Part shown: one piece after another, positions 8,122 through 24,835 of the stretch
Layout: each line of letters begins with the position of its first letter
How positions within the stretch are numbered: position 1 is the first letter of the stretch
Notes under the pieces: model-generated
What the model saw: only the letters and a program-made list of their open reading frames with translations
Database searches by the model: none
What the model was told of the DNA's origin: nothing
Source of the DNA: Christensenellales bacterium
Lineage (GTDB): Bacteria; Bacillota; Clostridia; Christensenellales; CALWSW01
DNA length: 64,000 bases
Assembly: GCA_050945915.1 (NCBI GenBank)
Contig: JBMNTV010000002.1
Span: 4,599-68,598 of the forward strand
Direction: 5' to 3'
Made by a program: the position numbers and the translations under genes

Positions 8122-8167
8122 TGGAGCTGATGAGCAGATTCGAACTGCCTACCTCCTCATTACCAAT
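8122..8167 (-). repeat. 46-bp direct repeat (att junction): orphan copy of tRNA-Thr positions 31-76
   Basis: tggagctgatgagcagattcgaactgcctacctcctcattaccaat is identical base-for-base to 24790-24835. Flanking bases differ on both sides. Confidence 0.9.
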
Positions 8168-8272
8168 AATGATGCTTTTCAACTCCACGATTTCCCCTTT
8201 ATCTGGATAAGCCAAGTATAACTTGTGCTCGGCTTGCGAGTCCAGATATTGGGGCGTAACTTATGCGGTTTT

Positions 8273-9211
8273 CTACCGGTCGGTCAGAAACGCGGTGAGC
8301 TTGCCGGTCTGCCCCTTGTGGTGGGACAGGCGTAAATGGGTGTAGATGTCCAGCGTGATCTGGATGCTGGAATGGCCCGCCCACACCTGGGCTGTTTTGA
8401 CATCAACCCCTGCTTCGTACAGCAGGGTGATATAGGTGTGCCGCAATTGCTTGGACGTAATCTTTGTGCCCAAGCCTTTTATTGCGTTCTTCCAATACGT
8501 TCGGAAGGATGTGAGTGACATAAGCCCTCCGCGGTGGTTCGGAAAAACATAGTCCGAAGTGCGGATGCAATACAGTTTGTTGAGCAAGCTGTGCAAATTC
8601 GGTTCCGCGATCGGTACGGTGCGTATCCCCGCTTCGCTTTTGGGAGGTTTGATCATACCTTGGTTGGTTACATAAGAGACGGATTTTGTTACGTGGATCT
8701 TGCGGGACTCAAAACAAATATCGTCCCAAGTGAGGGCAAGCCCCTCACCGCGTCGCAAACCGGTGTAGAGGTAGAGTAACATCAACGGGTCAGCCAGGGC
8801 ATCAATTTGACGAATTGCTTCATCGCCAAGAATGATAGGCTTATTCTTTGAGATTCTGGGCAACCGGATTTTTAATGCCGGGTTGCGGTCTAAAAACTCA
8901 TTGATGTACCCAAACTCCAATATCTGTGAAAGTCGTCCAACATAGTACTGAATGGACGAGGGCGCACACCCTTCTGCAATCAGTTGAGAAACAAACCAAT
9001 CGATGTGGTACGGCTTAATAAGCCGCACGTCACGCTCTCCGAAGCGCGGGATGATGTGACGGTTTATTTCGTACATGTAATTTTGAAGGGTTTTTTGCGT
9101 TATGTAACATCCTTGAACTGTTTTCCACAATTCAGTCAGCATTGAGAGCGTAACGATTTCGCCGTTGGTCAATGCTGTTTCGACCTTTTTAAGTATCGCT
9201 GTATCCATCAT
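8273..9211 (-). CDS. Tyrosine-type site-specific recombinase/integrase
   Basis: Carries the catalytic signature YTGLRRGE ... LRHTYITLL ... AGHSSIQITLDIYTH (R, H-x-x-R, H, Y). ATG 9211 is preferred over the TTG at 9223. Confidence 0.9.
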   Translation of the reverse strand: MMDTAILKKVETALTNGEIVTLSMLTELWKTVQGCYITQKTLQNYMYEINRHIIPRFGERDVRLIKPYHIDWFVSQLIAEGCAPSSIQYYVGRLSQILEFGYINEFLDRNPALKIRLPRISKNKPIILGDEAIRQIDALADPLMLLYLYTGLRRGEGLALTWDDICFESRKIHVTKSVSYVTNQGMIKPPKSEAGIRTVPIAEPNLHSLLNKLYCIRTSDYVFPNHRGGLMSLTSFRTYWKNAIKGLGTKITSKQLRHTYITLLYEAGVDVKTAQVWAGHSSIQITLDIYTHLRLSHHKGQTGKLTAFLTDR

Positions 9212-9425
9212 ATATATCCCCAATCTGTTAAATTGTTGTCAGAGTAATATGACGGATTGTTCCGATTTACACAGTTAGTTGTGCATATTGTCCGTTGAGT
9301 GGGTGACGCACTGCTTTGCTGTTTTGACTCGATATGTCGGACTCACGACGACGTTAAGCGCTTTCGCCGAGTTTGGTAACGCTGTTTGCTTTCAGCAATA
9401 TTCTGTTTTCAAGGTGCTTATCAAG

Positions 9426-9448
9426 GTACATGTATAAGATACATGTAC
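9426..9448. repeat. Perfect inverted repeat gtacatgtat-aag-atacatgtac upstream of the integrase
   Basis: 10-bp arms with a 3-bp spacer, seen directly in the sequence about 215 bp upstream of the int start. Function unknown; it could be an operator. Confidence 0.6.
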
Positions 9449-9617
9449 AGTAACAAGCTGTCAAATTTTTAGTCAAAAACGTGTTTTTGTATGATTTTCG
9501 CAATATTTTTCAAATTTTTACTTGTCTAATATCAAAATCTGTTACCAAGAGGTATACCCTGGCGGATAAAATGTGGCTGGATAGCGTGAAACAAAGAAAC
9601 TGATAAATCAGCCTGGC

Positions 9618-9786
9618 AACTTCGTCCCAAGTTGGGACGAAGTTGCAGAAGATGTCTCGGGCAAAAAGCTGAAAAATCAACTTGGGACACTTCGTCCCAA
9701 GTTGGGACGAAGTCGCGGAGCGGTTGATCGAACGAATAAGCTAATAAATTGGTCTGGGTCACTTCGGCCCAACTTGGGCCGAAGTG
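9618..9786. promoter_or_regulatory. Array of three palindromic parS-like sites
   Basis: The sites are 9618-9644 aacttcgtcccaaGttgggacgaagtt, 9689-9713 acttcgtcccaaGttgggacgaagt, and the variant 9760-9786 cacttcggcccaaCttgggccgaagtg. An extra half-site aacttgggac lies at 9679-9688. The same core recurs inside parB. Confidence 0.6.
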
Positions 9787-10017
9787 TTAGGCCGATTGTC
9801 TTGACGGAAATTCGTGCAACTACATTTTAAATTTTCTAGAAATATGAATCCACAGAAGTACGTTGACAGGAAATACGCGGCAATCGATATATTGGAGAAT
9901 TTACTTATTCGTATTATAAGATGTTATCACCGCTATGCTGTTGGCAAGCTTGGAGAAAGGAAACAACGATGACTGATTAACATTGAGAAATTTGGCAACA
10001 TTGAAGCGTTCTGACAG

Positions 10018-10420
10018 TTGGTCCAAAAGTACACAGGCTATCAGAATAGCGACGATCGTCCGCTTTCCGAACTTGCCGCGCATATCCTTATCACCGCCCT
10101 GTTACAGACAATGCCAGCTTCTACCCTGCGAGGCTTGGAGCGGTTCATTTCCGACTCCAACAAGCTATCAGCTTGTTCATGGCATACTCAAACAATATTT
10201 CAAAGAGATTGCTGAGAACGTCATTAAAGTTGAGGACATCATCAATGTTATCGATAACCGCCGTAAGCTGCACAAGGTAACAAAGTCCAAATCCGTGTTC
10301 CCTACAGACGATAGCCTGCTGAAAATGCTGTATCTGGCTATGGTGGACATCACGAGAAAATGGACCGGGCTTGGAGCGTCATCCACGCACAAATGCCGTT
10401 TCTTCGCCGAGCGCATGCCT
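10018..10420 (+). pseudogene. IS256-family (mutator-type) transposase remnant, multiply frameshifted
   Basis: Frame fragments read ...AAHILITALL...LRGLERFI...LSACSWH and ...NRRKLHKVTKSKSVFPTDDSLLKMLYLAMVDITRKWTG / AWSVIHAQ / FFAERMPG. They resemble the C-terminal half of IS256-type transposases but are split over three frames. Confidence 0.5.
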
Positions 10421-10737
10421 GGTTAACACCACAGGCGACGGACGTCAATGGTAAACGAGCGGCTGCGCCGCCCTTGACATCCGCCCCCCCGCTGGGCGTT
10501 GTGTTGCTAACAAGGCGGCAACGAACCAGTCCGCTGCCGCCTTTCAAAATTTTGCTCCGTTTTGCACCCTCGTTTGCAGTTTACACAGAATACGGGATAC
10601 ACCCTAACGACACAGGGCAAGGTCCAACCTTGCCCCTAATTACTAAATGAGATTATTTTGATTTTGAAGAATACACAAAATTTCCAACGCGACGCACAGT
10701 ATATGGGATTGACCCATTTCTGGTCTAGCGAATGATA

Positions 10738-11445
10738 TTAAAACGTGTATTTCGAATAAAGTTCTTCGAAAATAGGTAGATCATCAACAATCTGGAAAGT
10801 GTTGCTTGCACTGACCAAATCAGCTCCTGCAGCAAAAGCACCCATCAAAATTGCCGTCGTCCAGTATTTGCCGTTGCCGGAAGCCTTGAGCCCCATGCCA
10901 AGCTCGTCCGCCTTCTTGCGCAACATCTGAATTCTATGCATCGGTGCGCCTACCTTATTATAGTCATAAGCCTTAATGTGCGTCGCGCCGCCCTCTTTAA
11001 TCGCATCACACATGCGGAACATGTCATCCAAAGAATCGTTACACATAGTGAGAACTTTGATCTCGCCGTCGAAGCTTCCTTTTACAGCACGGACATACTC
11101 TGTAATGAGATCCCATCTGCGCATGGTCCATGCGGACATGTCGGGGTATACATCGATGGAACGGCAGCCTCCTTTGTACGCGATTTCCGCCTGCTTAGCG
11201 GCGGCGGCAGCGGGCATAAGGCCATCTTTAAAGTTGATCGGTGTAGACATAATAACGCCCGAACCATCCAGAAGGTCATGCACAAAACCGTGCCAATGAT
11301 GGCTGGGGGAGAAGATTACACGAAATCCGTACTCAATGCCCTTCGTAACTTGGTCGGTAATTATTTTTTCATCATTGTCCCAAATGACATGTTCCAAGCG
11401 GCTTGCCAGCCATTTTTTGGTTACCAATTCCCCGTTGAGATACAT
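10738..11445 (-). CDS. DeoC-like aldolase-family protein (divergent paralog of the 2-589 gene)
   Basis: 235 aa. Shares GG..(I/V)K, K.SG.G.(Y/F)WT(T/S)AI and the C-terminal I(V/I)DDLPIFEE motif with the aldolase at 2-589. GGAGG RBS precedes ATG 11445. Confidence 0.7.
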   Translation of the reverse strand: MYLNGELVTKKWLASRLEHVIWDNDEKIITDQVTKGIEYGFRVIFSPSHHWHGFVHDLLDGSGVIMSTPINFKDGLMPAAAAAKQAEIAYKGGCRSIDVYPDMSAWTMRRWDLITEYVRAVKGSFDGEIKVLTMCNDSLDDMFRMCDAIKEGGATHIKAYDYNKVGAPMHRIQMLRKKADELGMGLKASGNGKYWTTAILMGAFAAGADLVSASNTFQIVDDLPIFEELYSKYTF

Positions 11446-11697
11446 AATGTTTCCTCCTTCTATATTTAGAAAAGCTGATATGATAGAGTTAAAGATGCTA
11501 TTATGCTCACCATCTCTATGTGCAAGACTATATCACAACAAACCTGTATAGTCAATACTGCAATACGTGTTATACAACTAAGTTTTGACATAGTGCCGTG
11601 CAAAGATAAGAGTGTTGAGATGGTGAAATAAGAAATATGCAAATAAACCCATCGATGTGGCGAGACGGACCATCGCAGACGAGTATGGAGAAGAAAT

Positions 11698-11808
11698 GGT
11701 CTGCCCAAGTCTTTGTACCTGATTGGTAAGCTTTCGCAGTATCCGTTCTCCCGAGGACTGCCCGGCTCAATATAACCCGGCTTAATAATAAATAGTAAGT
11801 TTGCTCAC
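11698..11808 (-). pseudogene. Short remnant of an rve (DDE integrase-core) transposase gene, copy A
   Basis: The minus-strand frame reads YIEPGSPRENGYCES, the P..NG..E segment that carries the catalytic Glu of rve transposases. It is joined directly to ...KDLGRP. Nucleotide-level repeat of 15388-15790. Confidence 0.5.
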
Positions 11809-12005
11809 CTTTTCTGCCTGGCTTTTTCCGTTGCCTCATTGACTTTTTGTTTACGGGCTTAAGGATTCGGCTGGGTGCTCTGGATTTTCCGGGGCGCCCG
11901 GCTTGTATTTTGTATGACGTCCCGCACAACCTTTCACAAGCTCCATGCGCGTTGACCGATGTTGTCATACATGATAAGATTAATAAACATAAGATTTGAA
12001 GGAGC

Positions 12006-12743
12006 ATGCAAATGGCGACAAGAAACCGTTCGATCAGCACAGCAATGGAAGTTTCCCTGCGGGAACGCATTCAAAACGGCGAGTGGGCAGTGGATTGCGC
12101 CGTGCCTTCGGAAAACGAGCTCGCTCGGCAATATTCCGTCAGCCGCATGACTGCCCGCTCGGTGCTCACCCAGCTGGTCGGGGCCGGGTTGTTATACCGC
12201 ATTCCGGGCAAGGGCACATTTGTGGCTCAGGAGCCCACCCTCGTGCTGCGGGATAGGGCGTTTTGCTCCATCCGGGAGCAGCTTACCAAACAGGGGCACA
12301 ACGTTAGTACCCAGTTGCTCAGTATGGGAGAAATCGCTGCTACCGAATCTGTGGCAAAGAAGCTAGATCTGCATGAGAGTGCGCCCGTGTTGCAAGTGCA
12401 TAAACTACGTTTTCTGGAAAGCAAGCCTATCAGCCTACACACAAGCTTCTTTCCTCTTTCTCGTTGCCCCGGGCTCCAGCAATATGATTTTGTGGAGCGA
12501 GACAGCTGTGTTGTTATCGAGGAGCATTACGGTATCAAGCGCGCCCGGGTCAAGGAAACGCTGGAATCCACACTTGCCACGTTCCAGGAAGCGTCCAAGC
12601 TAGGCATTCTGCCTGGCCACCCGTTGCTTCTGCTGGATAGCGTGGTCTATTCAACCGAAAAGTATCCCTATGAATATGCCAAAGTAGTGTATCGGGGAGA
12701 TATGATCAAGATTTCCTTTGATTATGAGGACGACATTCGCTAG
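12006..12743 (+). CDS. GntR/HutC-family transcriptional regulator (winged HTH + UTRA effector domain)
   Basis: Contains PSENELARQYSVSRMTARSVLTQLVGAGLLYRIPGKGTFV, the GntR HTH signature. The C-terminal approx 150 aa are UTRA-like. The alternative ATG at 12012 is better spaced from AAGGAG (11999-12004). Confidence 0.88.
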   Translation: MQMATRNRSISTAMEVSLRERIQNGEWAVDCAVPSENELARQYSVSRMTARSVLTQLVGAGLLYRIPGKGTFVAQEPTLVLRDRAFCSIREQLTKQGHNVSTQLLSMGEIAATESVAKKLDLHESAPVLQVHKLRFLESKPISLHTSFFPLSRCPGLQQYDFVERDSCVVIEEHYGIKRARVKETLESTLATFQEASKLGILPGHPLLLLDSVVYSTEKYPYEYAKVVYRGDMIKISFDYEDDIR

Positions 12744-13070
12744 GTGTATAACAAAATAGTCCGGTAGATTTAATTATACGTACCGTAGATCGTGAAACGG
12801 CATCAGATGGACATATCCCGCCATCGGGGATAAGGCCATCTTTTGCGTTCTCAGGATGCATGATAACGCCCCTATAAAAGCGGCACAAAAACGCGATGGA
12901 TAAGTTATAGTGAGAACATAAATGACGTGTGCAAATCCCCGGCCGAAAGCCATGAGATGCGGTCGCACTCCAGGCAAACGGGAATTCTGGAGATTGGCAG
13001 AACCGGTACCTCTACCTGATGTAGGGTTACACATAATTTGGAATAGCCTCGCAATTTACTCTACACGCAA

Positions 13071-13105
13071 AGAAGAACGCTTCGGATAACCCGAAGCGTT
13101 CTTCT
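13071..13105. terminator. Strong 15-bp-stem hairpin between convergent gntR-type and flavoenzyme genes
   Basis: agaagaacgcttcgg / ataac / ccgaagcgttcttct, a perfect stem. It lies between stop 12743 (+) and stop 13120 (-). Confidence 0.6.
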
Positions 13106-13119
13106 CATTTTGATTCGTA

Positions 13120-15039
13120 TTATGCGTAATACCCCATGCGGAAGCCCGCCGCGACGTTGGTGCGGATGTTGCCCTGCTCCAGCGCGTCGCCGCAACACAC
13201 GGCGTTAATTCCCTTTTCTTCCAGCGCCTGTTGCAACGCGCCGCCCGCCGGGCGCTGGCCGGTGGCAAGAACGATCAAATCGGCCTTGGCGCGCTGGGCC
13301 ACGCCTTGGGAATCGACGTAGTTAACGCCGTCCGGTTCGATGGAAGAAACCCGTGCGCTCACTTGCAGATTGGAGCCGGATTCTTTCAAAATAGCCAGAT
13401 CGCGTTCACGGTGAGTGGCTTCCTGCCCGGCAGAAAGCACTGGGGCCATTTCGATGATGGTGATGCGGTTGCCATGTTCCAGCAAGTATAGCGCCGCTTC
13501 ACAGCCCACGTTGCCGCCGCCGATCACCACCACATCCTTTGCTTTTGGCGTGGGAACGGTTCCGTCCAGCACATCCCATACCCCGACGGTGTGTTCCACG
13601 CCAGGCAGGGGCGGCGTTGCGGGAACCGCGCCCACAGCCACGATCACCTTGTCCGGCGCCAGTGCGGCGACGGAATCTACCGTGGCTTCTGTGTTCAACA
13701 ACACCTTCACCCCCAGCAGTTCAAACTGCCGTTCGAAGTATTCCGCCGTGGTGTTCAGGATTTCCTTGTCCGGCGGCACGCTGGCAATGTTCATCTGCCC
13801 GCCCAGGAAGCCCTTCTTCTCGATCAGGGTGACTTTGTGGCCGCGTTCCGCAGCGGTTTGGGCGGCCTGCATGCCCGCCACGCCACCGCCGACCACCACG
13901 ATGTTCTTGGGCGCGCGCACGGTGGGCAGGTTGCCTTCGTCATAAACGGCGTCAAACCCGACGTAGGGGTTCAGCGCGCAGCGGATGCCACTTTTTTTGC
14001 CCAGCATAGCGTAGCAGCCTTCCAGGCAGTTGATGCAGCGGCGGATTTCGTTTTCTTTGCCGGTGCGCAGTTTTTCCGGGAAGTACGGGTCACAGATCAA
14101 CTGCCGCCCGACGACGATCAGGTCGGCTTCGTTATTTTCCAGTATTTCTTCGCACATCTCTCCCGTGCGGATTTTACCTACGATGGCAACGGGCTTTTTG
14201 ACCACAGGCTTGATCTTTGCCACAAGGGGCCGCCGTGCGCCGTCCGGGCGATCCTGGGTTTCGGTAGCGCCGAACCAGCGGTCTTTGATGCCGGTGGTCA
14301 CGTTGATCATGTCTACCAGCGGATCGGCCAGTTTTGCATATTCTGCGCCCATGTCAATGTCGATTCCGCCGGGGGCCCAATCCTGCACCGCAAGGCGCAC
14401 GCTCAAAAGAAACCCTTCCCCACAGGCGGCACGGACTGCGGAGAGCACTTCGCCCAGGAAGCGGAAGCGGTTTTCCACATCGCCGCCATATTCGTCTGTG
14501 CGGTGATTGGTCAGCGGAGAAAGGAACTGGTTGACCAGATATCCGTGTCCCGCATGAATTTCCACGCCATCCAGCCCGGCCTGTTGGGCCCGGCGGGCAG
14601 CAGCGACGTACTTCTTCACAAGCTGGTCAATTTCTTCTTTTGTGAGGGCGGCATATCCCTTGCCTGCATCTGGCGCGACGGCCACCGACCCTGGCGAGGA
14701 AACGGACCGGGACCCGGCGTGGTGCAGTTGAGCCAGAATCTTGGTACCATAAGGCTTGACGCTGTCGGCAATAGCGTGCAAGCCGGGGATGTCGGTGTCT
14801 TTGGAAAGATCGAGCTGCACGACGGAGCCCATGCCGTGGGGCTGGTCTACCGAGCCGAACTCCAGAATGATCATACCCACGCCCCCTTCGGCGCGCTTAG
14901 CGTAATATGACCGCAGGGTTTCCGTCACGGTACCGTCCGCGTTGCAAAAAAGCGTGTCCATGGCGGGCATCACCAGTCGGTTTTTCAGCACGGTGCGGCC
15001 CACCCGAATGGGGGAAAACAGGTTTTTGTATTGTGTCAT
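13120..15039 (-). CDS. Old-Yellow-Enzyme-family FMN oxidoreductase fused to an FAD/NAD(P)-binding domain (2,4-dienoyl-CoA-reductase/enoate-reductase-like)
   Basis: 639 aa from MTQYKNLFSPIRVG. N-terminal OYE TIM barrel (VMPAMDT, HAGHGYLVNQFLSP). Cys cluster RRCINCLEGC...IRC. C-terminal VVVGGGVAGM and VVIGGGNVGCE dinucleotide folds. GGAGGA RBS precedes ATG 15039. Confidence 0.88.
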   Translation of the reverse strand: MTQYKNLFSPIRVGRTVLKNRLVMPAMDTLFCNADGTVTETLRSYYAKRAEGGVGMIILEFGSVDQPHGMGSVVQLDLSKDTDIPGLHAIADSVKPYGTKILAQLHHAGSRSVSSPGSVAVAPDAGKGYAALTKEEIDQLVKKYVAAARRAQQAGLDGVEIHAGHGYLVNQFLSPLTNHRTDEYGGDVENRFRFLGEVLSAVRAACGEGFLLSVRLAVQDWAPGGIDIDMGAEYAKLADPLVDMINVTTGIKDRWFGATETQDRPDGARRPLVAKIKPVVKKPVAIVGKIRTGEMCEEILENNEADLIVVGRQLICDPYFPEKLRTGKENEIRRCINCLEGCYAMLGKKSGIRCALNPYVGFDAVYDEGNLPTVRAPKNIVVVGGGVAGMQAAQTAAERGHKVTLIEKKGFLGGQMNIASVPPDKEILNTTAEYFERQFELLGVKVLLNTEATVDSVAALAPDKVIVAVGAVPATPPLPGVEHTVGVWDVLDGTVPTPKAKDVVVIGGGNVGCEAALYLLEHGNRITIIEMAPVLSAGQEATHRERDLAILKESGSNLQVSARVSSIEPDGVNYVDSQGVAQRAKADLIVLATGQRPAGGALQQALEEKGINAVCCGDALEQGNIRTNVAAGFRMGYYA

Positions 15040-15387
15040 GTTGCGTCCTCCGAAAATCTTGAGATGGTCGCCGTCGAGACGGAGAAGACCTTTTACACTA
15101 CCTGTTATATAACCGAAGCTGCAAAAAGTCAACATGTATAGCATGTTGTTGACAAGAACCGGGGATTTTATTCACGCAAAGCAAAATATGCCCCCGATTC
15201 TGCACCATATCTTGAGAAAATCGTCTAAAAAATCAAAAATGACTATTGACATGTTATACAAGCGGTGATATGTTTTCAATAACCATTTCGCTGCTGGTGA
15301 ATCCGGTTTGGGACTGATTGATGCTCCAATGCATACGATCATTCCGGAACATCTTGTGCAATCAGCTGCAAAAACGCCAAAGGAGGT

Positions 15388-15790
15388 GGTCTGCCCCTAG
15401 TCTTTGAACAAGTCGGAGTTAGTAAAGTTTGTGTTGGCAAAACGTTCCTTCTTTGTTTGGTTGCATCTTAACATAGGCCGAGGAGGCGCTCAAGGGCGCG
15501 CCAGCGCGTGTATGCGTTTATGATGAATCGCACCCTCAAACGATAAGTTGTGGTTCACTTCATGAAACCGTAAAAAGTATTTTCTACGATGCCGGAGATT
15601 TCTCGCCCAATCCTGCTACGTGGCCTGATTCGTAATGGTTCTTCCAACGTTGGCAAAAACCTACGCCTTATGGAGATTCCCAAACAGCTCGCCGTTGGAA
15701 AATCCATTCGGCATCCGGCTGCTAAGATTTCGCAGTATCCGTTCCCCCGGGGGCTACTCGGCCCAATATAAATAGTAAGTTCGCTCGCTA
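15388..15790 (-). pseudogene. Longer decayed remnant of the same rve-type transposase, copy B
   Basis: The minus strand reads ELTIYIGPSSPRGNGYCE. After frameshifts and stops it continues ...NGELFGNLHKA*VFANVGRTITNQ... and ...KD*GQTTSFGVFAA, resembling the C-terminal third of integrase-core transposases. Both ends match copy A at the nucleotide level. Confidence 0.5.
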
Positions 15791-16387
15791 ATTCTCCTGC
15801 ATGGCGTGCTTCCGCAATACTATCCTCCTAATTACATGGAAACTAGAACTTGCGAAGTCCTGCTCCTCCCCAGACTGTTTCCTTGTCACTTCCGCTAGCT
15901 CCCTTGCTTTGTTGATTATATCTCAACTGACTCTAGGGGTGGTACAAGGATTGGGGGGGAGGGCAATCTCTTTTGCTAATTGCATACGATGATCGCGTTC
16001 TTTTTGAAATCTTGTCATAATTCTCCCGGTATTCTCCCGTTTTCCGTCTTCGATTTCTGAACGCTTTTCCGCTCCGGCCATCTTAGCAGATCGGCCAAAG
16101 CCCAAACATGTGCCCGTAACGGTATAACATGTACAAAATTAACCTGACTACACATACAGGTCGTGATGAGATTTTGCTTAGTGGAAATTGAAACGGGGCA
16201 TTATTTTTAAGTCAACACTGCGCAAAAAACCCAACTAGTCTTACGCATAGGAAAGCGGGCTGTTCGCACCACATGGTGCTCCTATTCTCTGTGCATTGGA
16301 TACCTTGGGACAGTGTCCGAACAGTTCCTTGTGAAGATAAAGTATCGGAGCGTTCATCCGAAATATAAATAGTGAGAGGTATCTTCA

Positions 16388-17947
16388 ATGGCAAACCAAT
16401 ATGTTGTTGGAATCGATGCAGGTACTACCGGTTGCCGGACAGTCATCTTTGATCTGCAGGGCAACGAGATCGGCTCGGGGTATCGGGAGAACCCGTTGAT
16501 CTATCCGCAAGCCGGATGGGTTGAACTTGGAGTCCAGGATATCATCGACAACTGCTACGCATCGACGCGCGAAGCACTGACGAAGACCGGAATCGACCCC
16601 AAAGAGATTGCGTCGATCAGCTTCACCTATATGCGCCCTGTGGTCTGTCTGCGCGGAGAGGACGGAAGCTGGGTCCGTGATATTCAGATGTGGCAGGATA
16701 TGCGTGCCGCACAGGTGTTCCCCTGGATGACCCAGAGGCTCGCTGAGTTTGGCATGACGCCGGACGACCTGTATGATATCACCGGGTTCCCATATTCGAC
16801 TGTGTGGATGTTGGGCAAAATCTGCTGGATACAGCAGAATGAACCTGATGTTTGGGCGCGCGTCAAGCACATCCACAACCTTCACGGTGTCCTCGTGCAT
16901 GCGTATGGCTGCGAGGAGTGGCTCGAGAACAGCGAGGATCTCGGCTGGTGGCAGCTTAACAACTGCGATGACTTCACTTGGAACGAAAAGCTCTGCAAGG
17001 TCTTTCAGGTCGACCCCTCAATGCTTCCCAAGCATGTGCCCACCGGCACAGTCATAGGCGCCGTTTCGCGTGAGGTCGCCCAGAAGACCGGCTTGGCCGA
17101 GGGCACCCCGCTGGTCGCGGGCCTCGGTGACCAGCAGTGCGCCGCAGTCGGCATGGGCAATATCCGTGAAGGAATGGCCTCGCTCGTACTCGGGACCGCC
17201 GGCGTATTGGTCTGCCAGTCCGAGAAGCCGGTTCGTGACCCGAACCGCAAAGCACACGTTATTGGATCCGCTCTCCATAAATGGGAGATGGAGGGCCATT
17301 CAAGCGCCGCGGCGAGCTCCTTCAAGTGGATCCGCCAGACGTTTGGTCACATGGAGCAGGCCACTTCTGGCCTGACAGGCATCGACGTCAACGACCTGCT
17401 GACCGCGCAGGCGGCGAAGGCGAAGCCGGGAGCTCAGGGTCTGGTTTACATCCCGTGGCTCGCGGGTGCGGCCATGCCCTACTATGACACGAATGCGCGC
17501 GGTGCGTTTATCGGTATGACCTTTGGCCACCGCAAGTGCGAGATCTTGCGTGCCGGCATGGAAGGCGTCTGTTGTGAGATGCGCACTATGCTTGAGGCAA
17601 TCCAAAACGCTGGAGTCGCGCCATCCGAATACATCCGCATCGGTGGTGGCGCAGCTCGCTCGTCGCTGTGGAACCAGATCAGTGCGGACGTCTACGGTGT
17701 GCCGGTTGAGACGGTCAAGACACCCGAGAGCACTGCGCTCGGCGCGGCGATGATGGGCGCCATCGGCGTCGGCATCTTCAAAGACCTTAAGGAGGCGAGC
17801 GAAGCGATGGTCCATGTGACTGGCCGCTGGGAACCCATCCCCCAAAACGTTGAGGTCTACAACGAAATCTACCAGATATTCTTGAATTCTTACACCGCAC
17901 TGAAAGAGCAAGTATTCCCTGCTATCGCGAGGTTCCAGGGAGTCTAA
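16388..17947 (+). CDS. FGGY-family carbohydrate kinase (paralog of 863-2428)
   Basis: 519 aa. Contains VVGIDAGTTGCRTVIFD, GDQQCAAVG and GGGAARS. It aligns along its full length with the kinase at 863-2428. Confidence 0.9.
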   Translation: MANQYVVGIDAGTTGCRTVIFDLQGNEIGSGYRENPLIYPQAGWVELGVQDIIDNCYASTREALTKTGIDPKEIASISFTYMRPVVCLRGEDGSWVRDIQMWQDMRAAQVFPWMTQRLAEFGMTPDDLYDITGFPYSTVWMLGKICWIQQNEPDVWARVKHIHNLHGVLVHAYGCEEWLENSEDLGWWQLNNCDDFTWNEKLCKVFQVDPSMLPKHVPTGTVIGAVSREVAQKTGLAEGTPLVAGLGDQQCAAVGMGNIREGMASLVLGTAGVLVCQSEKPVRDPNRKAHVIGSALHKWEMEGHSSAAASSFKWIRQTFGHMEQATSGLTGIDVNDLLTAQAAKAKPGAQGLVYIPWLAGAAMPYYDTNARGAFIGMTFGHRKCEILRAGMEGVCCEMRTMLEAIQNAGVAPSEYIRIGGGAARSSLWNQISADVYGVPVETVKTPESTALGAAMMGAIGVGIFKDLKEASEAMVHVTGRWEPIPQNVEVYNEIYQIFLNSYTALKEQVFPAIARFQGV

Positions 17948-18235
17948 TGGAATACAAATCAATAAATTAGATACAAGAGCATATAGGGAGGGTCGGTTGC
18001 CAAACCTTTAAGCAACTGACCTTTCCGAAGCTTGTGATTACATACATGAAAGAAAGGACACCTAATAGCTCTAGACTTATTGATAATATGAACTGCAGAT
18101 AAAGGTGTTCTGAATCGTCAATGAGCTACCTTTGTTTTAAGAAGTGTTCAAAAAACTATATATAGCACTGCAAGAGAACATCGAACTGGCTGAATCCAAA
18201 GCCGATTCAGGTTGGTTTATAAGGAGGACATCGTA

Positions 18236-18997
18236 ATGGAAAAGAAACGTTTGGAAGGCGAAGTAGCGGCGGTGACCGGCGCAGCGTCGGGCTTGGACCG
18301 TGGAATCGCAATAGAGTTAGCTAAAAATGGCGCAATCGTTGCCTGCTGCGATATTGATGATCAGGGAAATATGAAAACGGTAGATATGATCAAAGCAGCT
18401 GGCGGGCAAGCATTCCCTGTGAAAATGAATGTAGGTGATTCCGCGTCCGTCGATGCTGCTTTTAAAGAAATATTTGATAAGACCGGTAGGCTCGACATTC
18501 TGGTCAATGGCGCAGCTATCTCAAGAAAGCTGCAACTACCCGAATGTACCGATGAGGAATGGGACCTGGTTATAAGGATTAATCTAACTGGTGCGTTTTA
18601 CACCATTCGTGCAGCATATCCCTATTTCAAGAAAACCGGTGGTGGAAAGATCGTGAATATTTCCTCGACCTCAGGTAAAAGCGGAGGGAGTTGGTCGGGT
18701 GCTCATTATGTCGCGTCCAAGGCTGGGGTGATAGGATTGACAAGGTATTGCGCCGGCTATTTCTGCAAGGATAATATCCGGGCCAATGCCATTTGCCCCG
18801 GTGTCGCAGAGACCCCGCTTACTGCTGATACTACGCCTGCAGTCCTAGATAAAATGCTTCAAAACATTCCAATGTGCAGAATGGCAACGCCGGAAGATGT
18901 AGCGGGCGCTGTTTTATTCCTGGTCTCTGATGAAAGCAAATACATTACGGGCATAACAGTAGATGTCACCGGCGGCAGATATATATATAATAACTGA
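18236..18997 (+). CDS. Short-chain dehydrogenase/reductase (SDR)
   Basis: Has the TGAASGLDRGIA Rossmann motif, NGAA and the catalytic YVASKAG (Y-x3-K). AAGGAGG RBS precedes ATG 18236, so the track start at 18212 was rejected. Confidence 0.9.
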   Translation: MEKKRLEGEVAAVTGAASGLDRGIAIELAKNGAIVACCDIDDQGNMKTVDMIKAAGGQAFPVKMNVGDSASVDAAFKEIFDKTGRLDILVNGAAISRKLQLPECTDEEWDLVIRINLTGAFYTIRAAYPYFKKTGGGKIVNISSTSGKSGGSWSGAHYVASKAGVIGLTRYCAGYFCKDNIRANAICPGVAETPLTADTTPAVLDKMLQNIPMCRMATPEDVAGAVLFLVSDESKYITGITVDVTGGRYIYNN

Positions 18998-19111
18998 CAA
19001 TTGTTCAGAGTTCCCATGGAATGAGATACTGCTCCAGCCAATACGAATGAAAACAAAAAACAGGGCTGGGTGGGTCTGATGTGTCCCCACAAAGCTGGAC
19101 AAATGTTTGGA

Positions 19112-19335
19112 TTAAGCAACGGAAAGGGCTTGTTGCCTGTGAATGGCAGGCGGAGGCCCTTTAGCTTTGCTACGGAGGTTGTTGTAATAATCGAGATCGT
19201 CAATTGACTTCCGCTTGAAATGCTCCATTGAGTGCATGGATGACGCTCCAGTCCTGCCGCCGCCCGGTCCATTTTCACGTGATGCAGTTTTGAATTTCGG
19301 TCTGGGGGAATGCCGCCTCGATTGGTCGAAAACCC
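19112..19335 (-). pseudogene. IS3-family (IS150-like) transposase C-terminal remnant
   Basis: The minus-strand frame ends ...SMEHFKRKSIDDLDYYNNLRSKAKGPPPAIHRQQALSVA*. This resembles the conserved ...SMEHFK...YI.YYNN.R.K.KLKG.SP..YR... tail of IS3-family OrfB. It directly abuts the truncated ATPase gene. Confidence 0.5.
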
Positions 19336-19337
19336 GC

Positions 19338-19676
19338 TCAGATTGTCTGTTCAGGCGATGAAAATATCCTCAACCCCTTTGATTCCGGGGGCTCGTGTGA
19401 AAAGCAATTCTCACCGTCGCTGATCCCGGCCACAAACAAGCTCCGACCGCGTGGACAATCGGCAAACACTTCCCAGGGGACGGCTCCTTTTGCGATGTTG
19501 CCAATGCTTTTTTCGGCGGGTATGTCCACGCCGAAGTGCTTTGAAAGCGACGGGTATCGCCAATCGCAGGGCAGACAGGCGACGGCCTTGCCTTCCTGAG
19601 TCAACGTTGCCGCAAGGTTGGAGATCACCGTCGATTTGCCCGCCTTGGAACAGCCGGTGACAGCGATTATTGCCAT
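19338..19676 (-). pseudogene. Truncated MinD/ParA/CpaE-like P-loop ATPase fragment
   Basis: 112 aa, MAIIAVTGCSKAGKSTVISNLAATL, with a deviant Walker A. Homologs of this ATPase class are much longer. The ORF ends where the IS3-like remnant begins. Confidence 0.5.
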
Positions 19677-20485
19677 TCGATTTCACCGCCTTCCGGTAGT
19701 TCTTCGGGTTCGTCCTGCACCGTGTCGGCGAGGAACTTCTCCATTGCGGCGGTTTCCGCGTCCAGAATGGCTTGTTCCAACACGGGCAATTCCGCCGTGT
19801 TGAACTCCGTGAGCATTTCCAGGGCCGCAGCGTCGCGGCCGATCAACGCAACGTGGATGGTGGCCGTTGACTGGAGACGCACAAGCGTCGTCGCCTGGCG
19901 ATGTGTGGCGACCACCGTCACCGCAGCGGCGATTGTTGCGTCGGACGATTCCGCGTCCGTGGTGTCCTGCGCTTTTGCGTTTACCACGGACACGACCTCC
20001 ATGCAGCTTAGTTCCGGGGGCTGCATAATCAGCATGTCCCCGTCGCCGGGCTGGGCGGCGTAGATGCGGATCACGTCCCCGGTGGCCAGCTTGCCGGCAA
20101 CTCCTGCGGCAAGGCTGGGCACAGTGACAGAGATATTCATGCGATCCGCCCGGGTGATGATCGGGTCGGGGCCGAGCGCATCTGCCGTCGTAAACTTCGC
20201 CGCGGTCAGGTTATCGCTGGGGAGCAGCGGAACCGCAGCGTACAGGCCGATGCAGCTCTCCGGGGCCGTCAGCGTTCCGGTGGGCAGGGCGTATGCGCCG
20301 ATTTCTGCCGTAGTCAGCAGTTCCGGCGTGATCACCGTCCCTACGGGGACGATCTCGCGCACCCGCAGCACGGTTGCGGTTTCGCGGGTTTTGCTGTGCG
20401 CTTCGGGGACCAGCCAAAACGCGATTGCCGCCGCAAGCACCAGGCACGCGACGGCAATGAATATGCGGTTTTTCAGAATTCTCAA
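19667..20485 (-). CDS. cpaB: Flp/Tad pilus assembly protein CpaB/RcpC-like (N-terminal TM + SAF-like domain)
   Basis: 272 aa. Has an N-terminal TM helix (IFIAVACLVLAAAIAFWLV) and the VPVGTVITPELL ... GDVIRIYA pattern typical of CpaB. TTG start lies 6 nt after AGGAGGTGG and overlaps the upstream stop (TTGA). Confidence 0.75.
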   Translation of the reverse strand: MRILKNRIFIAVACLVLAAAIAFWLVPEAHSKTRETATVLRVREIVPVGTVITPELLTTAEIGAYALPTGTLTAPESCIGLYAAVPLLPSDNLTAAKFTTADALGPDPIITRADRMNISVTVPSLAAGVAGKLATGDVIRIYAAQPGDGDMLIMQPPELSCMEVVSVVNAKAQDTTDAESSDATIAAAVTVVATHRQATTLVRLQSTATIHVALIGRDAAALEMLTEFNTAELPVLEQAILDAETAAMEKFLADTVQDEPEELPEGGEIEWQ

Positions 20486-22026
20486 TCCGTTCCACCTCCT
20501 GTGTTGTCAAAAAGCGCGGCGCAGAAATTGTCGCGCTCGTGGGATTGTGCAAAAGGGTCGGCCAGAAAGGGCAGAGCGACTACCGTCTGGCCTTTTGCAA
20601 TGCGCCGCAGGGCCTGCTGGCTTTCCGGGGACAACCGGGCCAGCGCGATGGACATGCGCAGGCCATTTCCCTGGAACATCCGCAAAACGCTCTCGCAAGC
20701 GATCCAGCGCGTGCGTCCAGCGTCCGCGACAAATACCCGCACCGCCGCCCTGGTCAACTCGTCCAGCTTGGCCTGCTGCTGGGTGGGTAGCACTGCGCCA
20801 TCGTTCTGGCGCACGATTGCGCCTATGTCGGCGATGACGTAATCATAGCCGCCGCGCATGACTTCCGCGATGGTTTCGCCGCCGTAAAAAACATCCACCC
20901 CGGCGTAGCTGTACGGCGTGTCCAGCGCGGGGCGGGGTGGAAGATAGCGGAGATCCGCTTCCCCCAGCAGTGCCGTGCGCAGGCCGTTATCCGCCAGCCA
21001 TGCGGCGATTGCCGCCGCTGTCCAGGTACATCCGCCCCCAGACATCGTCTGGAATACGGCCACCGTCTGGCAGCTGCTTGGCTTTGGCGGTTTGTATTTC
21101 TGAGGGGCAGGTTCGGCCTTGCCGCGCCCGTTCGACCGCCCGAATCCCTTCCGGGGTAAGCCCGATTCTTCCGGCTGGGGCTTGTCCGCAACGGATGCCT
21201 TCGGCGGCGCTTCGGGCGGCACCTCCGGGACGACTTTCAGCGGCATTCCCACAGGCGGCTCCGGTTCCGCAGCGGGTGCAGGGGCCTTTTTCGGCTTCCG
21301 GGGCGCGCTGGATTTTTTCGCGGGCTTTTTGCCCTGGGTCGGCGGTTCTTCCGGGGCTTCCGGTTCGGGCTGGTTTCCCAACTCAGGCAGGGCTTCCGGC
21401 CCGGGCGACGCTGGTTCGTTCGGGGTTGACGGAAGCACCAGATTTTCTGGTTCCGGTTGTGGTTCCGGCTCCTGCGCCGCCGCCGATTCCATCGGGCTTT
21501 CCGGCTCTGGCAAGGGGGATGGTTCTTCGGCTACAAAGGCAGAGGGCTGCACATCTTCCGGCGCTTCGGTTGACGGCTCGGCAGGGCCGATGCCCGGCGA
21601 GTCGATCACAGATACTTCGACACCACTGGTGTCGAAGTCGCAAGCCGGTTGTTCGGACGGCTCCACCGCCGCAAGCGCATCCAGCAATTCGTCCACCAAA
21701 GCGCGACTGTCGGTGACCAGCGCGGCCACCAGGGAATCCCGGATCAGCTTTTTCACACCGTCATCGGCTGCATCTGATTTCGAGCCGATCACGATCACCG
21801 GCATGGGTTTACGTTTTTGCACTTCGCGGAAAAATCTGCGCCGCCCGAAGTTGTCGGCCACGCTCATGTGCAGGATCAGGCAATCGGCGGCGCTTGCCGC
21901 CAGCATGTCCAACAGCGCGCCGGGGTCGGGAACATCCTCCCCGCAAAGGCGCACGCCGTGCCCAGTGAGCGCCGTCCGGATCGCAGCCGGAACCAGCGCC
22001 GTGAGGACGGCGGGATACTCGGTCAT
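20482..22026 (-). CDS. TadZ/CpaE-like protein: receiver-like N-domain, approx 200-aa Pro/Glu-rich linker, degenerate P-loop ATPase-like C-domain
   Basis: 514 aa with a GGAGGA RBS. The C-domain VAVFQTMSGGGCTWTAAAIAAWLADNG sits where MinD/ParA proteins have KGGxGKT. The middle region is EPEPQPEPE/PKKAPAP-rich. Confidence 0.6.
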   Translation of the reverse strand: MTEYPAVLTALVPAAIRTALTGHGVRLCGEDVPDPGALLDMLAASAADCLILHMSVADNFGRRRFFREVQKRKPMPVIVIGSKSDAADDGVKKLIRDSLVAALVTDSRALVDELLDALAAVEPSEQPACDFDTSGVEVSVIDSPGIGPAEPSTEAPEDVQPSAFVAEEPSPLPEPESPMESAAAQEPEPQPEPENLVLPSTPNEPASPGPEALPELGNQPEPEAPEEPPTQGKKPAKKSSAPRKPKKAPAPAAEPEPPVGMPLKVVPEVPPEAPPKASVADKPQPEESGLPRKGFGRSNGRGKAEPAPQKYKPPKPSSCQTVAVFQTMSGGGCTWTAAAIAAWLADNGLRTALLGEADLRYLPPRPALDTPYSYAGVDVFYGGETIAEVMRGGYDYVIADIGAIVRQNDGAVLPTQQQAKLDELTRAAVRVFVADAGRTRWIACESVLRMFQGNGLRMSIALARLSPESQQALRRIAKGQTVVALPFLADPFAQSHERDNFCAALFDNTGGGTD

Positions 22027-22271
22027 TTTATTCCTCCTCTCGCAAACGGCTTTTTGCCGCAGTTTGGAAATTTACCGGCTGAAAAAAAGACTGGCCGCAG
22101 AAGGAGCGTTGTGCTTCTTTCCGGGCCAGGGTATTACGTACTAAGCTTAGCTTATATTTCTTTCAGCTGGTTATCTTTTAAGAGAAACGATAGGGTAGCA
22201 GAGAGATGTATACTTGTCAAATTACTTGCCAAAACCGCGTTTTGCATGATTTTTGGGCTTTTTGCTAATTT

Positions 22272-22583
22272 TCACTCGTCCTCATCTTCGATCATTTCGT
22301 TCATTTCATAGCCTGTTTCTTGCAGCCTTTGCGGTACAGGCCAGACAATGCGGCTCAAGTCGCGTCCAACTTCAAGCAAAAAGGACGGCTCTTTGCCTTC
22401 GGATACGTCCTTTCGAACAGCTTCGAACGAAATCGCGCCTTCGCGCAGGGTGTACAGGAGGATGCTTTTGAAAATATCGGGCGGCATTTCGCTCCAGTTG
22501 TCCGGCATATACTTGGCGATCGGACTCAATTCGATGGTGAGTCGGTTGTTCGGGATGTCGATCACGGTTTTGATTTCGGCCAT
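22272..22583 (-). CDS. Hypothetical small protein with acidic C-terminus (EMNEMIEDEDE)
   Basis: 103 aa. AAGGAG RBS precedes the ATG, which starts 12 nt after the parB stop. No family recognised. Confidence 0.65.
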   Translation of the reverse strand: MAEIKTVIDIPNNRLTIELSPIAKYMPDNWSEMPPDIFKSILLYTLREGAISFEAVRKDVSEGKEPSFLLEVGRDLSRIVWPVPQRLQETGYEMNEMIEDEDE

Positions 22584-22595
22584 AGTCGGCTCCTT

Positions 22596-23756
22596 TCATT
22601 CTCTTTCAAGGTCATTCTTCGAGTGGCGGCTATTTTGACGGGACTCTATCTGCTTGTTTTTGCCAAGCATTCGCTGGGCAAACGCGCACAAAAGTCCATC
22701 CAGTTCGAGTATGATTTGCTCATCTGAGTAATCCTTGCTGGCGGGCTTGATGATGGCGAGCCGTTCCCGCACGCGCTTGTTGTCTATCTCAAGCATCTTT
22801 TTTCGCTTCTTGGGTTCCTCAGATTTTTGGACAAAAAAGAAATCGTCCAGGTATGCTTCTGTTATTCCCCCTGCCACACTTTGTCTTTTCAACGCCTCCG
22901 CTTCTTTTAATTTAGGCTTTACGCCCTGTTCGCGCATGAAATCCAGCAGCATCGCCTGTTCATCTCTTTCGAGGTAGGACAAGGCCACAGCGGTGTTTGT
23001 TGGTATTTTATTGCCGTCAACCATTTCAAGGAATTCTGAGATCAGATAAGAAAGCCGGATGTACCTATGAATTTGAGTTTTACTTGTCCCGGTAGCTGCA
23101 GCCAATTCGTCATCTGATCGCCCAGTTTGGAAACTCGTCCCAAGTTGGGACGAGTTTTCTTGCAACAACCCCTCAGAATAATCCGTCCCAAGTTGGGACG
23201 AGTTATTTTTGGAGGGCCTACCACTTTTACGCTTCATTGCATCCAATCGCATTCTATATGCCACAGCTAATTCGCTCGGCATCATTTTTTGCCGATGCAG
23301 AAGATTCGCCTCTGTCATCATAATGTCTGCGGTGGCATCGTCTACATACCGGATGGATGCGGAGATCATGGCAGGTTCTGGACTGTCGCCTTGGATTAGC
23401 CGCATTGCCGCCGCGCGGTTGTGGCCGGATATGATCTCATACTTGCCTTCCTCTGTTGGATGCGGTCGCACAAGAATTGGTTCTAGTACGCCGCATTCGC
23501 GTATACTGTCCGCAAGTTCAACCAGTTCTGCATTGGGACGCAGTTTAAAAGCATGTCGCGCATATGGTATCAGGTCTTTGATGTACAGGTCGGTGCGTTC
23601 TTCGAGTCCGCGCCCGTTGGTCGGGCGCGATATCTCTCTAATATAATTGCTCTCGGAACGCCGAGCAGAGGTATTTTTTGGATCAATAAGCGGACTTGTT
23701 TGGAGATCTCTTAACTCCTGCAGACGCTGATCAATTCTTTTGCTGTGTGCTGACAT
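22596..23756 (-). CDS. parB: ParB/Spo0J-family partition protein (ParB N-terminal domain + HTH)
   Basis: Contains ELADSIRECGVLEPILVRP...YEIISGHNRAAA (ParB box) and an HTH at LAAATGTSKTQIHRYIRL. GAGGTGG RBS lies 8 nt before ATG 23756. Confidence 0.88.
   Translation of the reverse strand: MSAHSKRIDQRLQELRDLQTSPLIDPKNTSARRSESNYIREISRPTNGRGLEERTDLYIKDLIPYARHAFKLRPNAELVELADSIRECGVLEPILVRPHPTEEGKYEIISGHNRAAAMRLIQGDSPEPAMISASIRYVDDATADIMMTEANLLHRQKMMPSELAVAYRMRLDAMKRKSGRPSKNNSSQLGTDYSEGLLQENSSQLGTSFQTGRSDDELAAATGTSKTQIHRYIRLSYLISEFLEMVDGNKIPTNTAVALSYLERDEQAMLLDFMREQGVKPKLKEAEALKRQSVAGGITEAYLDDFFFVQKSEEPKKRKKMLEIDNKRVRERLAIIKPASKDYSDEQIILELDGLLCAFAQRMLGKNKQIESRQNSRHSKNDLERE
23131..23200. promoter_or_regulatory. 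Two parS-like palindromes embedded in the parB coding sequence
   Basis: The sites are 23131-23157 aaactcgtcccaaGttgggacgagttt and 23184-23200 cgtcccaaGttgggacg. The core matches the 9618-9786 array. They encode the repeated peptide (N)SSQLGT. Confidence 0.6.
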
Positions 23757-23815
23757 ATTGGTTTCCACCTCTTACTTATATATTTGCCCACATTGACAAT
23801 GCCAACAAAGATGCA

Positions 23816-24642
23816 TCATAAGGCGGTCATGCTTGCAATCTTCTCCTTAGGTGTATGGAACTTTTTGATCAGTTCTGCGGAAAAAGCGCGATAGGCATCC
23901 GAAACCGTCTTTGCCTTTTTTAATTCAAGAACGCTCTGTCCCCACAGGGCACTTTCTTCTGCTCGAACTGATCGTGGTATTTGCGTCTGAAACACGCCAA
24001 TGCTGTCACCGTGTTCTTTACGAATCTCTTTGACAACATGTTTAGTATGATTGTTTCGCATGTCCGTCATATTCATTAGAACGCCAGAGATTTGCAAAGA
24101 ACTATTCACGGACTCCTGTATCTCGTTGATGTTACCAATGAGAGTGCGCATGCCCAGGATCGAATAATACTGCGCCTGGGTTGGAATGATGGCATGAGTC
24201 GCAGTTGTCAATGCGTTGGCGGTCAGCATGCCTAGGGTGGGCGGACAGTCAATTAAAATATAATCGTAACTACCATGCAAATGCTTGAGCACGCGATGCA
24301 GCACATACTCCCGGGCGTATTTTGCGTTGATCTGGTTGTCACACGTGGATAAGTTGATGTTGGCTGGGATATAATTCAGGTTTTCGCTGTGGTTAACGAT
24401 ACCCGCCTGAATGTCAAAAGCAGCGCCTGAGAGCGCTGCTTCCAAATAGTTGATATGGTTAATTTTAAGTCATCCGGCTTCGGGCAACCCAACCCGTGGG
24501 TCATGCTTGCCTGGGGGTCCATGTCCACCAGCAGCACGGTGTTGCCTTGCTCCGCGAGCGCGGCCCCGAGGTTGATTGTGACAGTTGTCTTGCCTACGCC
24601 ACCTTTTTGATTGACAATAGCGATTGTTTTTGTATTTTTCAT
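23816..24642 (-). pseudogene. parA: ParA/Soj-family partition ATPase, interrupted by a frameshift near 24444-24446
   Basis: The N-terminal part [20 protein letters not shown]...DMDPQ is in one frame (24642 downwards). The rest, [10 protein letters not shown]...LIDCPPTLG..., is in another (to 23816). Changing the A3 run at 24444-24446 by 1 nt would give the continuous reading ...KLTISTILEAALSG.... AAGGAG RBS is present. Confidence 0.8.
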
Positions 24643-24789: not shown

Positions 24790-24835
24790 TGGAGCTGATG
24801 AGCAGATTCGAACTGCCTACCTCCTCATTACCAAT
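24790..24835 (-). repeat. 46-bp direct repeat (att junction) forming the 3' part of the intact tRNA-Thr
   Basis: Identical to 8122-8167. Confidence 0.9.

Follow-up and report, generated by a model that had tools for sequence, protein, structure and literature searches.

The three perfect palindromes found beside the tyrosine integrase gene (int) of a genomic island in contig JBMNTV010000002.1 of a Christensenellales bacterium are probably parS-type nucleation sites (ParB boxes) for the ParB that this same island encodes. The analysis covered a 64,000-nt stretch of this contig (the window), comprising the island and 47 kb of flanking chromosome, together with 80 genomic loci carrying homologues of the island ParB (1.05 Mb, mostly from Clostridia isolates and metagenome-assembled genomes (MAGs); L-numbers below are locus or contig labels). 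The array is best explained as an expansion of an ancestral site located inside the parB gene, and as cognate to, or at least compatible with, the island ParB. This assignment, in which binding is predicted from sequence, draws on the anatomy of the array and the borders of the island, on a palindrome with compensatory variation inside the parB genes of the whole family, on co-variation of that palindrome with the recognition helix of ParB, and on the linkage of the family to ParA.

An earlier note on this DNA had described three perfect palindromes about 70 bp apart, the third a GGCCC/GGGCC variant, and an extra half-site. All of these were recovered with a repeat finder, at palindrome lengths of 25-31 bp (Table 1). 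The array contains two CGTCC sites and one CGGCC site, and in palindrome 3 a T to G change in one arm, relative to palindromes 1 and 2, is matched by an A to C change in the other. Each palindrome forms the 3' end of a direct-repeat unit; successive units begin at intervals of 70 and 72 bp, with 69-76% identity among their 51-nt cores. The extra half-site lies 5 nt before palindrome 2, and degenerate half-sites occupy the equivalent place in units 1 and 3.

The exact 17-mer CGTCCCAAGTTGGGACG occurs in the window at 9623, 9693, 23136 and 23184, the last two copies being those that the earlier note had placed inside parB. Allowing up to 3 mismatches added only palindrome 3 within the 64 kb, and the 47 kb of flanking chromosome contained none, so that the proposed restriction of the motif to the island holds across the window. 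The resulting 10 strand-matches compare with 0.20 expected, and none of 100 shuffles reached 10. Odd 25-bp palindromes with at least 11/12 arm matches numbered nine in the window and 0-1 in shuffles; five of the nine are in the island, namely palindromes 1-3 of the array, in-gene palindrome A and one more at 21614. The chromosomal parS consensus TGTTNCACGTGAAACA gave 0 matches at up to 2 mismatches across the 64 kb and has no half-site in common with the palindromes, in agreement with the view that the motif is unlike the chromosomal parS of Firmicutes.

The island is 16,668 bp long and is bounded by an exact 47-bp direct repeat consisting of the 3' part of a tRNA-Thr gene (Table 1). The array is 1.45 kb from the left attachment (att) site, attL, and the in-gene sites are 1.6 kb from attR; the motif is therefore found at both ends of the element, as had been suggested. 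An excised circle would bring all five sites together in 3.3 kb, across parB'-parA-attP-int. The 16,698-bp Logan contig SRR31066156_56731 (comprising L084 and L226) was 100% identical to window positions 8122-24819, with a 30-nt terminal overlap inside the att repeat (16,668 + k-1). An excised circle would agree with this contig, which was nevertheless rejected as proof of circularity, since a contig bounded by the att repeat can end in this way in a k=31 graph. A reading of the palindromes as recombinase att sites was likewise rejected in the case of the window, where it is the tRNA 3' end, at a distance of 1.45 kb, that forms the att repeat.

The island ParB is identical to a protein at NCBI from a 'Christensenellales bacterium' MAG, and has about 870 homologues at approximately 40% identity and only two close relatives. 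A ParB_N domain was recognized (PF02195, 35.4 bits against a cut-off of 26.3), in which the sequence GHNR (GxxR motif) aligns with GERR of the Spo0J/ParB structures, and the NLxxR box has a one-residue insertion relative to the NLQRE of the family. A helix-turn-helix (HTH) domain followed (PF17762, 22.8 bits against a cut-off of 22.6), aligning with the HTH of 1vz0 and 6t1f. In an AlphaFold2 model the HTH helices cover residues 216-226 and 230-239, with a predicted local distance difference test (pLDDT) score above 85, and the recognition helix begins at K230-T231. Residues 185-215, between the confident N-domain and the confident HTH, have pLDDT below 50 and no secondary structure. Because this segment, which encodes the two in-gene sites, is predicted to be disordered, it appears from the model to be under little protein constraint.

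Read in frame, the in-gene sites give TCG TCC CAA CTT GGG ACG, or S-S-Q-L-G-T, and correspond to the motif GRPSKeNsSQLGTxxRSD, which is common to all of the ParB homologues and lies just before the HTH. The earlier note had proposed searching homologous ParB loci for co-occurring palindromes, and this search was productive: in the 80 loci, 80 of 1.05 million positions were at least 11/12-palindromic, and about 55 of these, in about 55 of the 80 loci, were at one and the same place in parB. It was the sole recurrent palindrome within ±10 kb of parAB in the family. The 25-bp consensus site is A[AC]TT-N5-CAA-N-TTG-N5-AA[GT]T, with CAA-N-TTG invariant and the central base free; CAA-N-TTG-centred palindromes with at least 10/12 matches were observed 254 times in the ParB-homologue loci, compared with 1.1 expected. 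The N5 cores are diverse (CGTCC, ATTCC, GTGCC, CCGCC, CTGGC, CGCCG, CCCGA and others), and the opposite arm is always complementary. Among 57 distinct in-gene sites, arm positions were paired in 92.3% of cases against 67.9% in shuffles, a percentage inflated by taking the best palindrome of each gene, a bias of which the scan of the 80 loci is free. Changes on both sides were seen in 9 of the 12 position pairs, the covariation score was 0.535 against 0.132, and one-sided (G:T) intermediates were nearly missing.

The encoded peptide shifts in ways that preserve the palindrome (SSQLGT, YSQVGN, SGQVGQ), and the 'conserved' Gly turns into Val or Ala while T-T-G stays. Selection at the in-gene site thus evidently acts on the nucleic acid and not on the peptide. 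At least 139 metagenome and viral contigs in public data contained the exact 17-mer, with 99 of 140 sites in frame inside ParB open reading frames (ORFs), and in 51 of 69 loci an intact parA immediately preceded parB. The parB gene of the closest relative of the island ParB (L081, 59% identity) contains a pair of palindromes at a distance of 72 bp, and the core in both arms of each is CGACC. The in-gene site is ancestral and family-wide, and the intergenic array is an unusual addition to it. A full-text literature search, including the literal motif, gave no description of this palindrome or of any parS within this ParB family in the limited collection covered; the family of such sites inside the parB genes of gut Clostridia mobile elements is large and apparently undescribed. 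Two further loci (L276 4466-8645 and L295 532-4711) each contained two ParB paralogues about 3.3 kb apart, each with its own different in-gene palindrome. L082 and L083 (P0003 relatives) had a degraded site in a rearranged context and were uninformative, and L113, with two different palindromes in one parB, was set aside as a possible low-coverage chimera with a frameshift.

The protein that reads the site was sought by co-variation in 64 non-redundant ParB homologues, with 35 different cores and about 230 variable alignment columns. Excluding palindrome-encoded columns, those most associated with the core were T231 (z = 9.0), D219 (8.1), K230 (7.2) and R217 (5.3), and the remaining approximately 220 variable columns, including equally near upstream ones, had z below 4.5; the test controls for overall divergence and does not fully control for local linkage or recombination. 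With pairs binned by identity in the rest of the protein, at 45-55% identity the K230/T231 dipeptide was shared by 75% of same-core pairs compared with 8% of different-core pairs, and at 55-70% identity by 78% compared with 12%. L081 has the recognition dipeptide RE, differing from the KT of the island, alongside its changed core CGACC. The only other 'KT' ParBs, L034 and L037, carry the in-gene half-site TCGGCCCAA, which is the half-site of palindrome 3. In a phmmer alignment to 6t1f, K230 aligns with R173 of Caulobacter ParB, a residue in contact with bases of parS and one of the four by which ParB/Noc specificity is switched (PMC7383237). Gene linkage, co-variation and homology to a proven contact together point to ParB itself as the likely reader of the site. 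The earlier proposal of a distinct ParB/parS specificity pair therefore stands as the best reading of the in-gene site, the recognition-helix co-variation and the ParA linkage, with binding as the part that we infer.

Besides the cautions given above with the arm-pairing and co-variation figures, several points weigh against this assignment. The parA gene is frameshifted at a T-run near 24444-24446, both in the MAG and in two Logan assemblies (as a truncated 209-aa gene); where a type I ParABS system has an intact Walker-type ParA beside parB, the homologue directly upstream here is split. No rep, relaxase or type IV secretion system gene was recognized among the island genes. Given the broken parA and the lack of any recognized rep or relaxase gene, a role of the island system in autonomous partition is doubtful, and with its ATPase gene frameshifted and binding only predicted the system can be called no more than a putative functional ParABS partition system. 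Most homologue loci have a single in-gene site, compared with five sites in the island. Array sites 1 and 2 are identical (25/25) to the in-gene site of 41 distinct 'RN'-class ParBs, a class that is much commoner than, and different from, that of the island ParB, whereas the in-gene sites of the island itself depart from them at positions 2-3 and 23-24. Thus, of the earlier proposal that the array is a centromere for the island ParB, the tie to ParB was borne out, and the centromere role was left doubtful by the broken parA and by the lack of any recognized replication or transfer gene in the island.

Since sites 1 and 2 match the RN-class in-gene site, it is conceivable that they are used by the ParB of another element. 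The array would then consist of real ParB boxes acting in trans, mimicking the loading site of the ParBs of co-resident conjugative elements and allowing hitchhiking, or titration and incompatibility. This is the serious rival explanation, and although we consider it unlikely, it is favoured by the broken parA, by the missing transfer and replication genes and by the closer match to foreign sites than to the island's own. It also has company in other elements that carry non-coding arrays of different cores (about 20 sites in 1.3 kb in L140, as well as L254, L283, L291, L300 and L205), three of which (L254, L283 and L291) are upstream of a recombinase gene, as here, and it has a precedent in the parS mimicry of SGI1 (PMC10954446). 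However, the island encodes an intact ParB whose own gene bears two sites with the same 17-bp core, and all three array cores suit the 'KT' recognition class. Within ParB classes there is variation at the outer positions 1-3, which may therefore go unread, and no helper element was seen in the 64-kb window.

The remaining explanations do without ParB. Perfect 12-bp arms could form hairpins in mRNA or single-stranded DNA, acting as terminators, processing sites, single-strand origins or promoters, or oriT-type repeats (oriT, origin of transfer). Positions 9590-9800 fold at -54 kcal/mol as single-stranded DNA (z = -9.3), a T-run follows one alternative minus-strand hairpin (9704-9678), parB of Caulobacter is known to be regulated by an mRNA structure, and in other elements the same box occurs just upstream of mobC-relaxase operons, a frequent location of oriT, or a ParB homologue directly follows a relaxase gene in a few cases. 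Nevertheless this explanation appears improbable, as the symmetry extends up to a single central base with CAA-N-TTG invariant, which a loop would not need, and the cores co-vary with a DNA-reading residue of ParB. The near absence of G:T intermediates argues in the same direction, as do the coding-strand mismatches (9 G:U against 17 A:C and 45 other). A terminator scan found no T-run directly after the three main stems, Rfam gave no match at 7-26 kb besides the tRNA and two sub-threshold chance matches (one of them to MIR1861, 24.6 bits against a gathering score of 88), and an oriT would be without a relaxase among the genes recognized in the island. It is very improbable that the three direct repeats of about 70 bp serve the excised circle as iterons of a plasmid-type replication origin: their spacing is regular (70 and 72 bp) and they adjoin the most AT-rich part of the island, but no Rep gene was found in the island, the adjoining ORF looks like a decayed IS256-like transposase fragment, 9.2-10 kb contains no DnaA boxes, and the conserved element of the repeats is the same palindrome that is found inside parB across the whole ParB family. 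Generic dispersed repeats of the repetitive extragenic palindromic (REP) or miniature inverted-repeat transposable element (MITE) type, chance, or an assembly artefact deserve hardly any credence. The sequences are repetitive and palindromic, and nothing further favours such an origin; against it are the clean 47 kb of flanking chromosome in the window, the in-frame position of the exact 17-mer inside ParB ORFs in 99 of 140 public cases, and, with respect to an artefact, the 100% identity of an independent assembly of the island.

Table 1. Coordinates of the palindromic sites and associated features of the island (positions in the 64,000-nt window).
Feature	Position	Strand	Length	Description
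attL	8122-8168		47 bp	copy of tRNA-Thr 3' end
int	8273-9211	-	312 aa	tyrosine integrase, from ATG
Promoter-like sites	9397-9464	-		two sites facing int (promoter scan)
Tandem units (three)	9576-9790	+	~70-72 bp each	A-rich segment AAnAAnCTnAnAAAT, degenerate half-site and palindrome
Palindrome 1	9616-9646		31 bp	perfect; GCAACTTCGTCCCAA-G-TTGGGACGAAGTTGC; 25-bp family core ACTTCGTCCCAAGTTGGGACGAAGT (repeat finder and reading of 9300-10100)
Half-site	9678-9688			CAACTTGGGAC, centre and right arm
Palindrome 2	9689-9713		25 bp	perfect; same as palindrome 1 core
Palindrome 3	9760-9786		27 bp	perfect; core variant ACTTCGGCCCAACTTGGGCCGAAGT, symmetric GGCCC/GGGCC
parB	22596-23768	-	390 aa	from GTG (NCBI: 386 aa)
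In-gene palindrome A	23132-23156		25 bp	perfect; AACTCGTCCCAAGTTGGGACGAGTT; codes second NSSQLGT copy, residues ~204-210
In-gene palindrome B	23180-23204			AATCCGTCCCAAGTTGGGACGAGTT; 25-bp palindrome with 10/12 arm matches; codes first NSSQLGT copy, residues ~188-195
parA	23816-24642	-		split; Walker-A part in ORF 24376-24786, remainder in ORF 23816-24445
tRNA-Thr(GGT)	24790-24865	-		3' 47 nt (24790-24836) = attR repeat

If the palindromes are boxes for the island ParB, the following course of events can be proposed. The protein belongs to the ParB/Spo0J/Noc family and has the CTPase fold, and each 25-bp site would bind one ParB dimer, the two HTH recognition helices reading the variable core of 5-6 bp on either side of the invariant CAA-N-TTG. 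The ancestral in-gene site would have been duplicated within parB and then triplicated as the tandem array of units of about 70 bp beside int. On the 16.7-kb excised circle, ParB might assemble a single partition or silencing complex from the five sites, with CTP-dependent clamping and sliding as in other ParB proteins, by analogy. Such a complex could give a segregation handle and could cover the int promoter. In its present state the island is an integrative element in partial decay: parA is frameshifted and a transposase is left as a remnant, while ParB and five sites have been kept.

A wider conjecture, less likely than not and offered tentatively, takes the array as a minor instance of centromere-like biology, so far undescribed, among Clostridial mobile elements. 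In it each ParB has its loading site written into the codons of its disordered linker, so that protein and site are inherited together, and core and recognition-helix residues have co-diversified into dozens of specificities. The different-core arrays beside recombinase genes, with from 4 to more than 20 sites, could then act as multi-specific centromere mimics, able to hitchhike on a resident ParABS, to sense a helper, or to titrate and expel competitors, and the array in the window would serve more than its own ParB.

Mixed arrays of this kind were seen in several other elements. The 1.3-kb metagenome contig L140 (1-1293) is almost wholly taken up by an array of family palindromes, about 20 in number, whose cores differ and in many cases equal the in-gene cores of different ParBs. 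Other mixed non-coding arrays are at L254 9387-10188 (8 palindromes), L283 5490-6650 (9), L291 5357-6420 (5), L300 2453-2616 (4), L205 3795-3945 (4) and L256 220-276. In L254, L283 and L291 the array is at an end of the element, flanked on one side by the gene of an SF1/UvrD-like helicase and on the other by that of a large serine recombinase, and it stands just upstream of the recombinase as the window array does of int. An alignment of these three had a mean column identity of 82%, too alike for palindrome and spacer conservation to be compared. These mixed-core arrays may be multi-specific collections of ParB sites.

Boxes with the same core were also dispersed over several intergenic positions in contigs resembling integrative and conjugative elements (L129, L147, L160, L172, L173 and L194), a distribution reminiscent of the KorB OB sites of RK2. 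A box A[AT]TGCGTCCCAA[GC]TTGGGACGCA[AT]T was found just upstream of an operon of mobC-like and relaxase genes in L091 (1665), L126 (2263), L147 (5078), L156 (1958) and L190 (1301), these two genes having been called by sequence inspection and not by hidden Markov model searches; the placement of the box appears operator-like or oriT-like. In a minority of loci (L060 6870-12476, L042, L046, L066 and L069), a ParB homologue with an in-gene palindrome directly followed a MobA/VirD2 relaxase gene, without ParA, the order in L060 being AAA_25 ATPase, relaxase, ParB and tyrosine integrase. The relaxase-linked loci hint at a role in mobilization.

Two additional palindromes were noted within the island. 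A sixth perfect 25-bp palindrome, ACTTCGACACCACTGGTGTCGAAGT, at 21614-21638 inside a 514-aa ORF, encodes DFDTSGVEV; its outer flanks are as in the array sites and its centre is CCA-C-TGG, not CAA-N-TTG, and its membership in the ParB-site system is uncertain. An even 24-bp palindrome, CTATCGTAACTGCAGTTACAATAG, with 11/12 arm matches, is located at 24722-24745 between the tRNA-Thr gene and the start of parA, and may be the operator of the parAB promoter. The array is 150-390 bp upstream of the predicted int promoters, and the sites facing int were the only promoter-like ones found by the promoter scan. A 20-nt inverted repeat (9416-9435/9439-9458, 80% complementary), separate from the array, overlaps both of these sites and may be an operator that controls int.

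To the right of the array is what looks like a decayed IS256-type transposase fragment (VFPTDDSLLKMLYLAMVDITRKWTG; 9983-10650, ORF 9983-10426), judged by eye and with no Pfam match, and the stretch at 9-10 kb is the most AT-rich of the island (GC 0.41). The middle of the island holds cargo-type genes for a DeoC-like aldolase, a GntR regulator, an OYE/pyridine-nucleotide oxidoreductase, an FGGY kinase and an SDR protein. Downstream of parB, a block at 19338-22583 on the minus strand encodes proteins of 103 aa and 514 aa, the latter with a Pro/Glu-rich middle and a P-loop C-terminus, together with a CpaB/RcpC-like protein and a 112-aa P-loop fragment; L081 (1430-3357) likewise has a small and a large ORF after parB. 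PADLOC gave no defence-system matches among the ParB-side genes. Since dnaA (51993-53342, minus strand) and clusters of DnaA boxes, directly upstream of it at 53335-53523 and 9 kb away at 62422-62515, are found to the right of the island, the chromosomal origin region is approximately 28 kb from the island on that side.

The practical consequence for this island alone is modest. If ParB binds the sites, the family would provide a large natural series of matched protein/site pairs, with about 35 cores among 64 homologues, each site being written into the gene of its own reader. It would offer a data set on how DNA-binding specificity diversifies and how partition incompatibility is avoided or exploited, and a source of orthogonal ParB/parS labelling tools. 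The family shows strong DNA-level selection overriding amino-acid choice in a coding region, and the mixed-core arrays beside recombinase genes, if functional, would be a new kind of device for interaction between elements.

Among known systems, SGI1 carries parS mimics that hijack the ParABS of an IncC plasmid (PMC10954446). As in SGI1, the element studied here is a small, integrative, non-self-transmissible island with a few parS-like repeats that another ParB could serve. In contrast to SGI1, which has no ParB of its own, the island encodes an intact ParB with matching in-gene sites, and no helper was identified.

The F-plasmid sopC/SopB and P1 parS/ParB systems are type Ia plasmid centromeres, and sopC consists of twelve 43-bp units. 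The island resembles them in having a cis array of tandem units, each with an inverted repeat, beside a parAB operon, and in a specificity that diversifies between related elements, avoiding incompatibility. It differs from sopC in having three units of about 70 bp, extra sites inside parB, an integrated element without a replicon, and a frameshifted parA.

KorB-OB of plasmid RK2 pairs a ParB-family transcription regulator with dispersed palindromic sites. The nearest published parallel found for the dispersed boxes is ParB/parS of NAH7, in which transcription is likewise regulated by a ParB-family protein from dispersed palindromic sites (PMC12421886). Shared with both are the ParB-family protein and palindromic boxes in promoter-proximal intergenic positions, here before mobC-relaxase and other operons of the Clostridial relatives and, in the window, at the above distance from the predicted int promoters. 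Both of those systems are from Proteobacteria, whereas the host here belongs to the Clostridia, no KorA-like partner was identified, and a regulatory effect is only predicted.

The chromosomal ParB (Spo0J)-parS system is like the one described here in its protein, with a GxxR-containing ParB_N domain and an HTH, which is usually encoded after ParA. It also has a dyad-symmetric site inside the coding sequence of the ParB gene itself; Lin and Grossman reportedly located a parS within B. subtilis spo0J in 1998. In the island family this site is in the linker before the HTH, and not after the DNA-binding domain as in spo0J. The chromosomal site is a 16-bp sequence, compared with the 25-bp odd palindrome found here. 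In both cases specificity tracks the recognition-helix position equivalent to R173 of Caulobacter, but while chromosomal parS is conserved across phyla, the core of the sites described here is hypervariable between elements.

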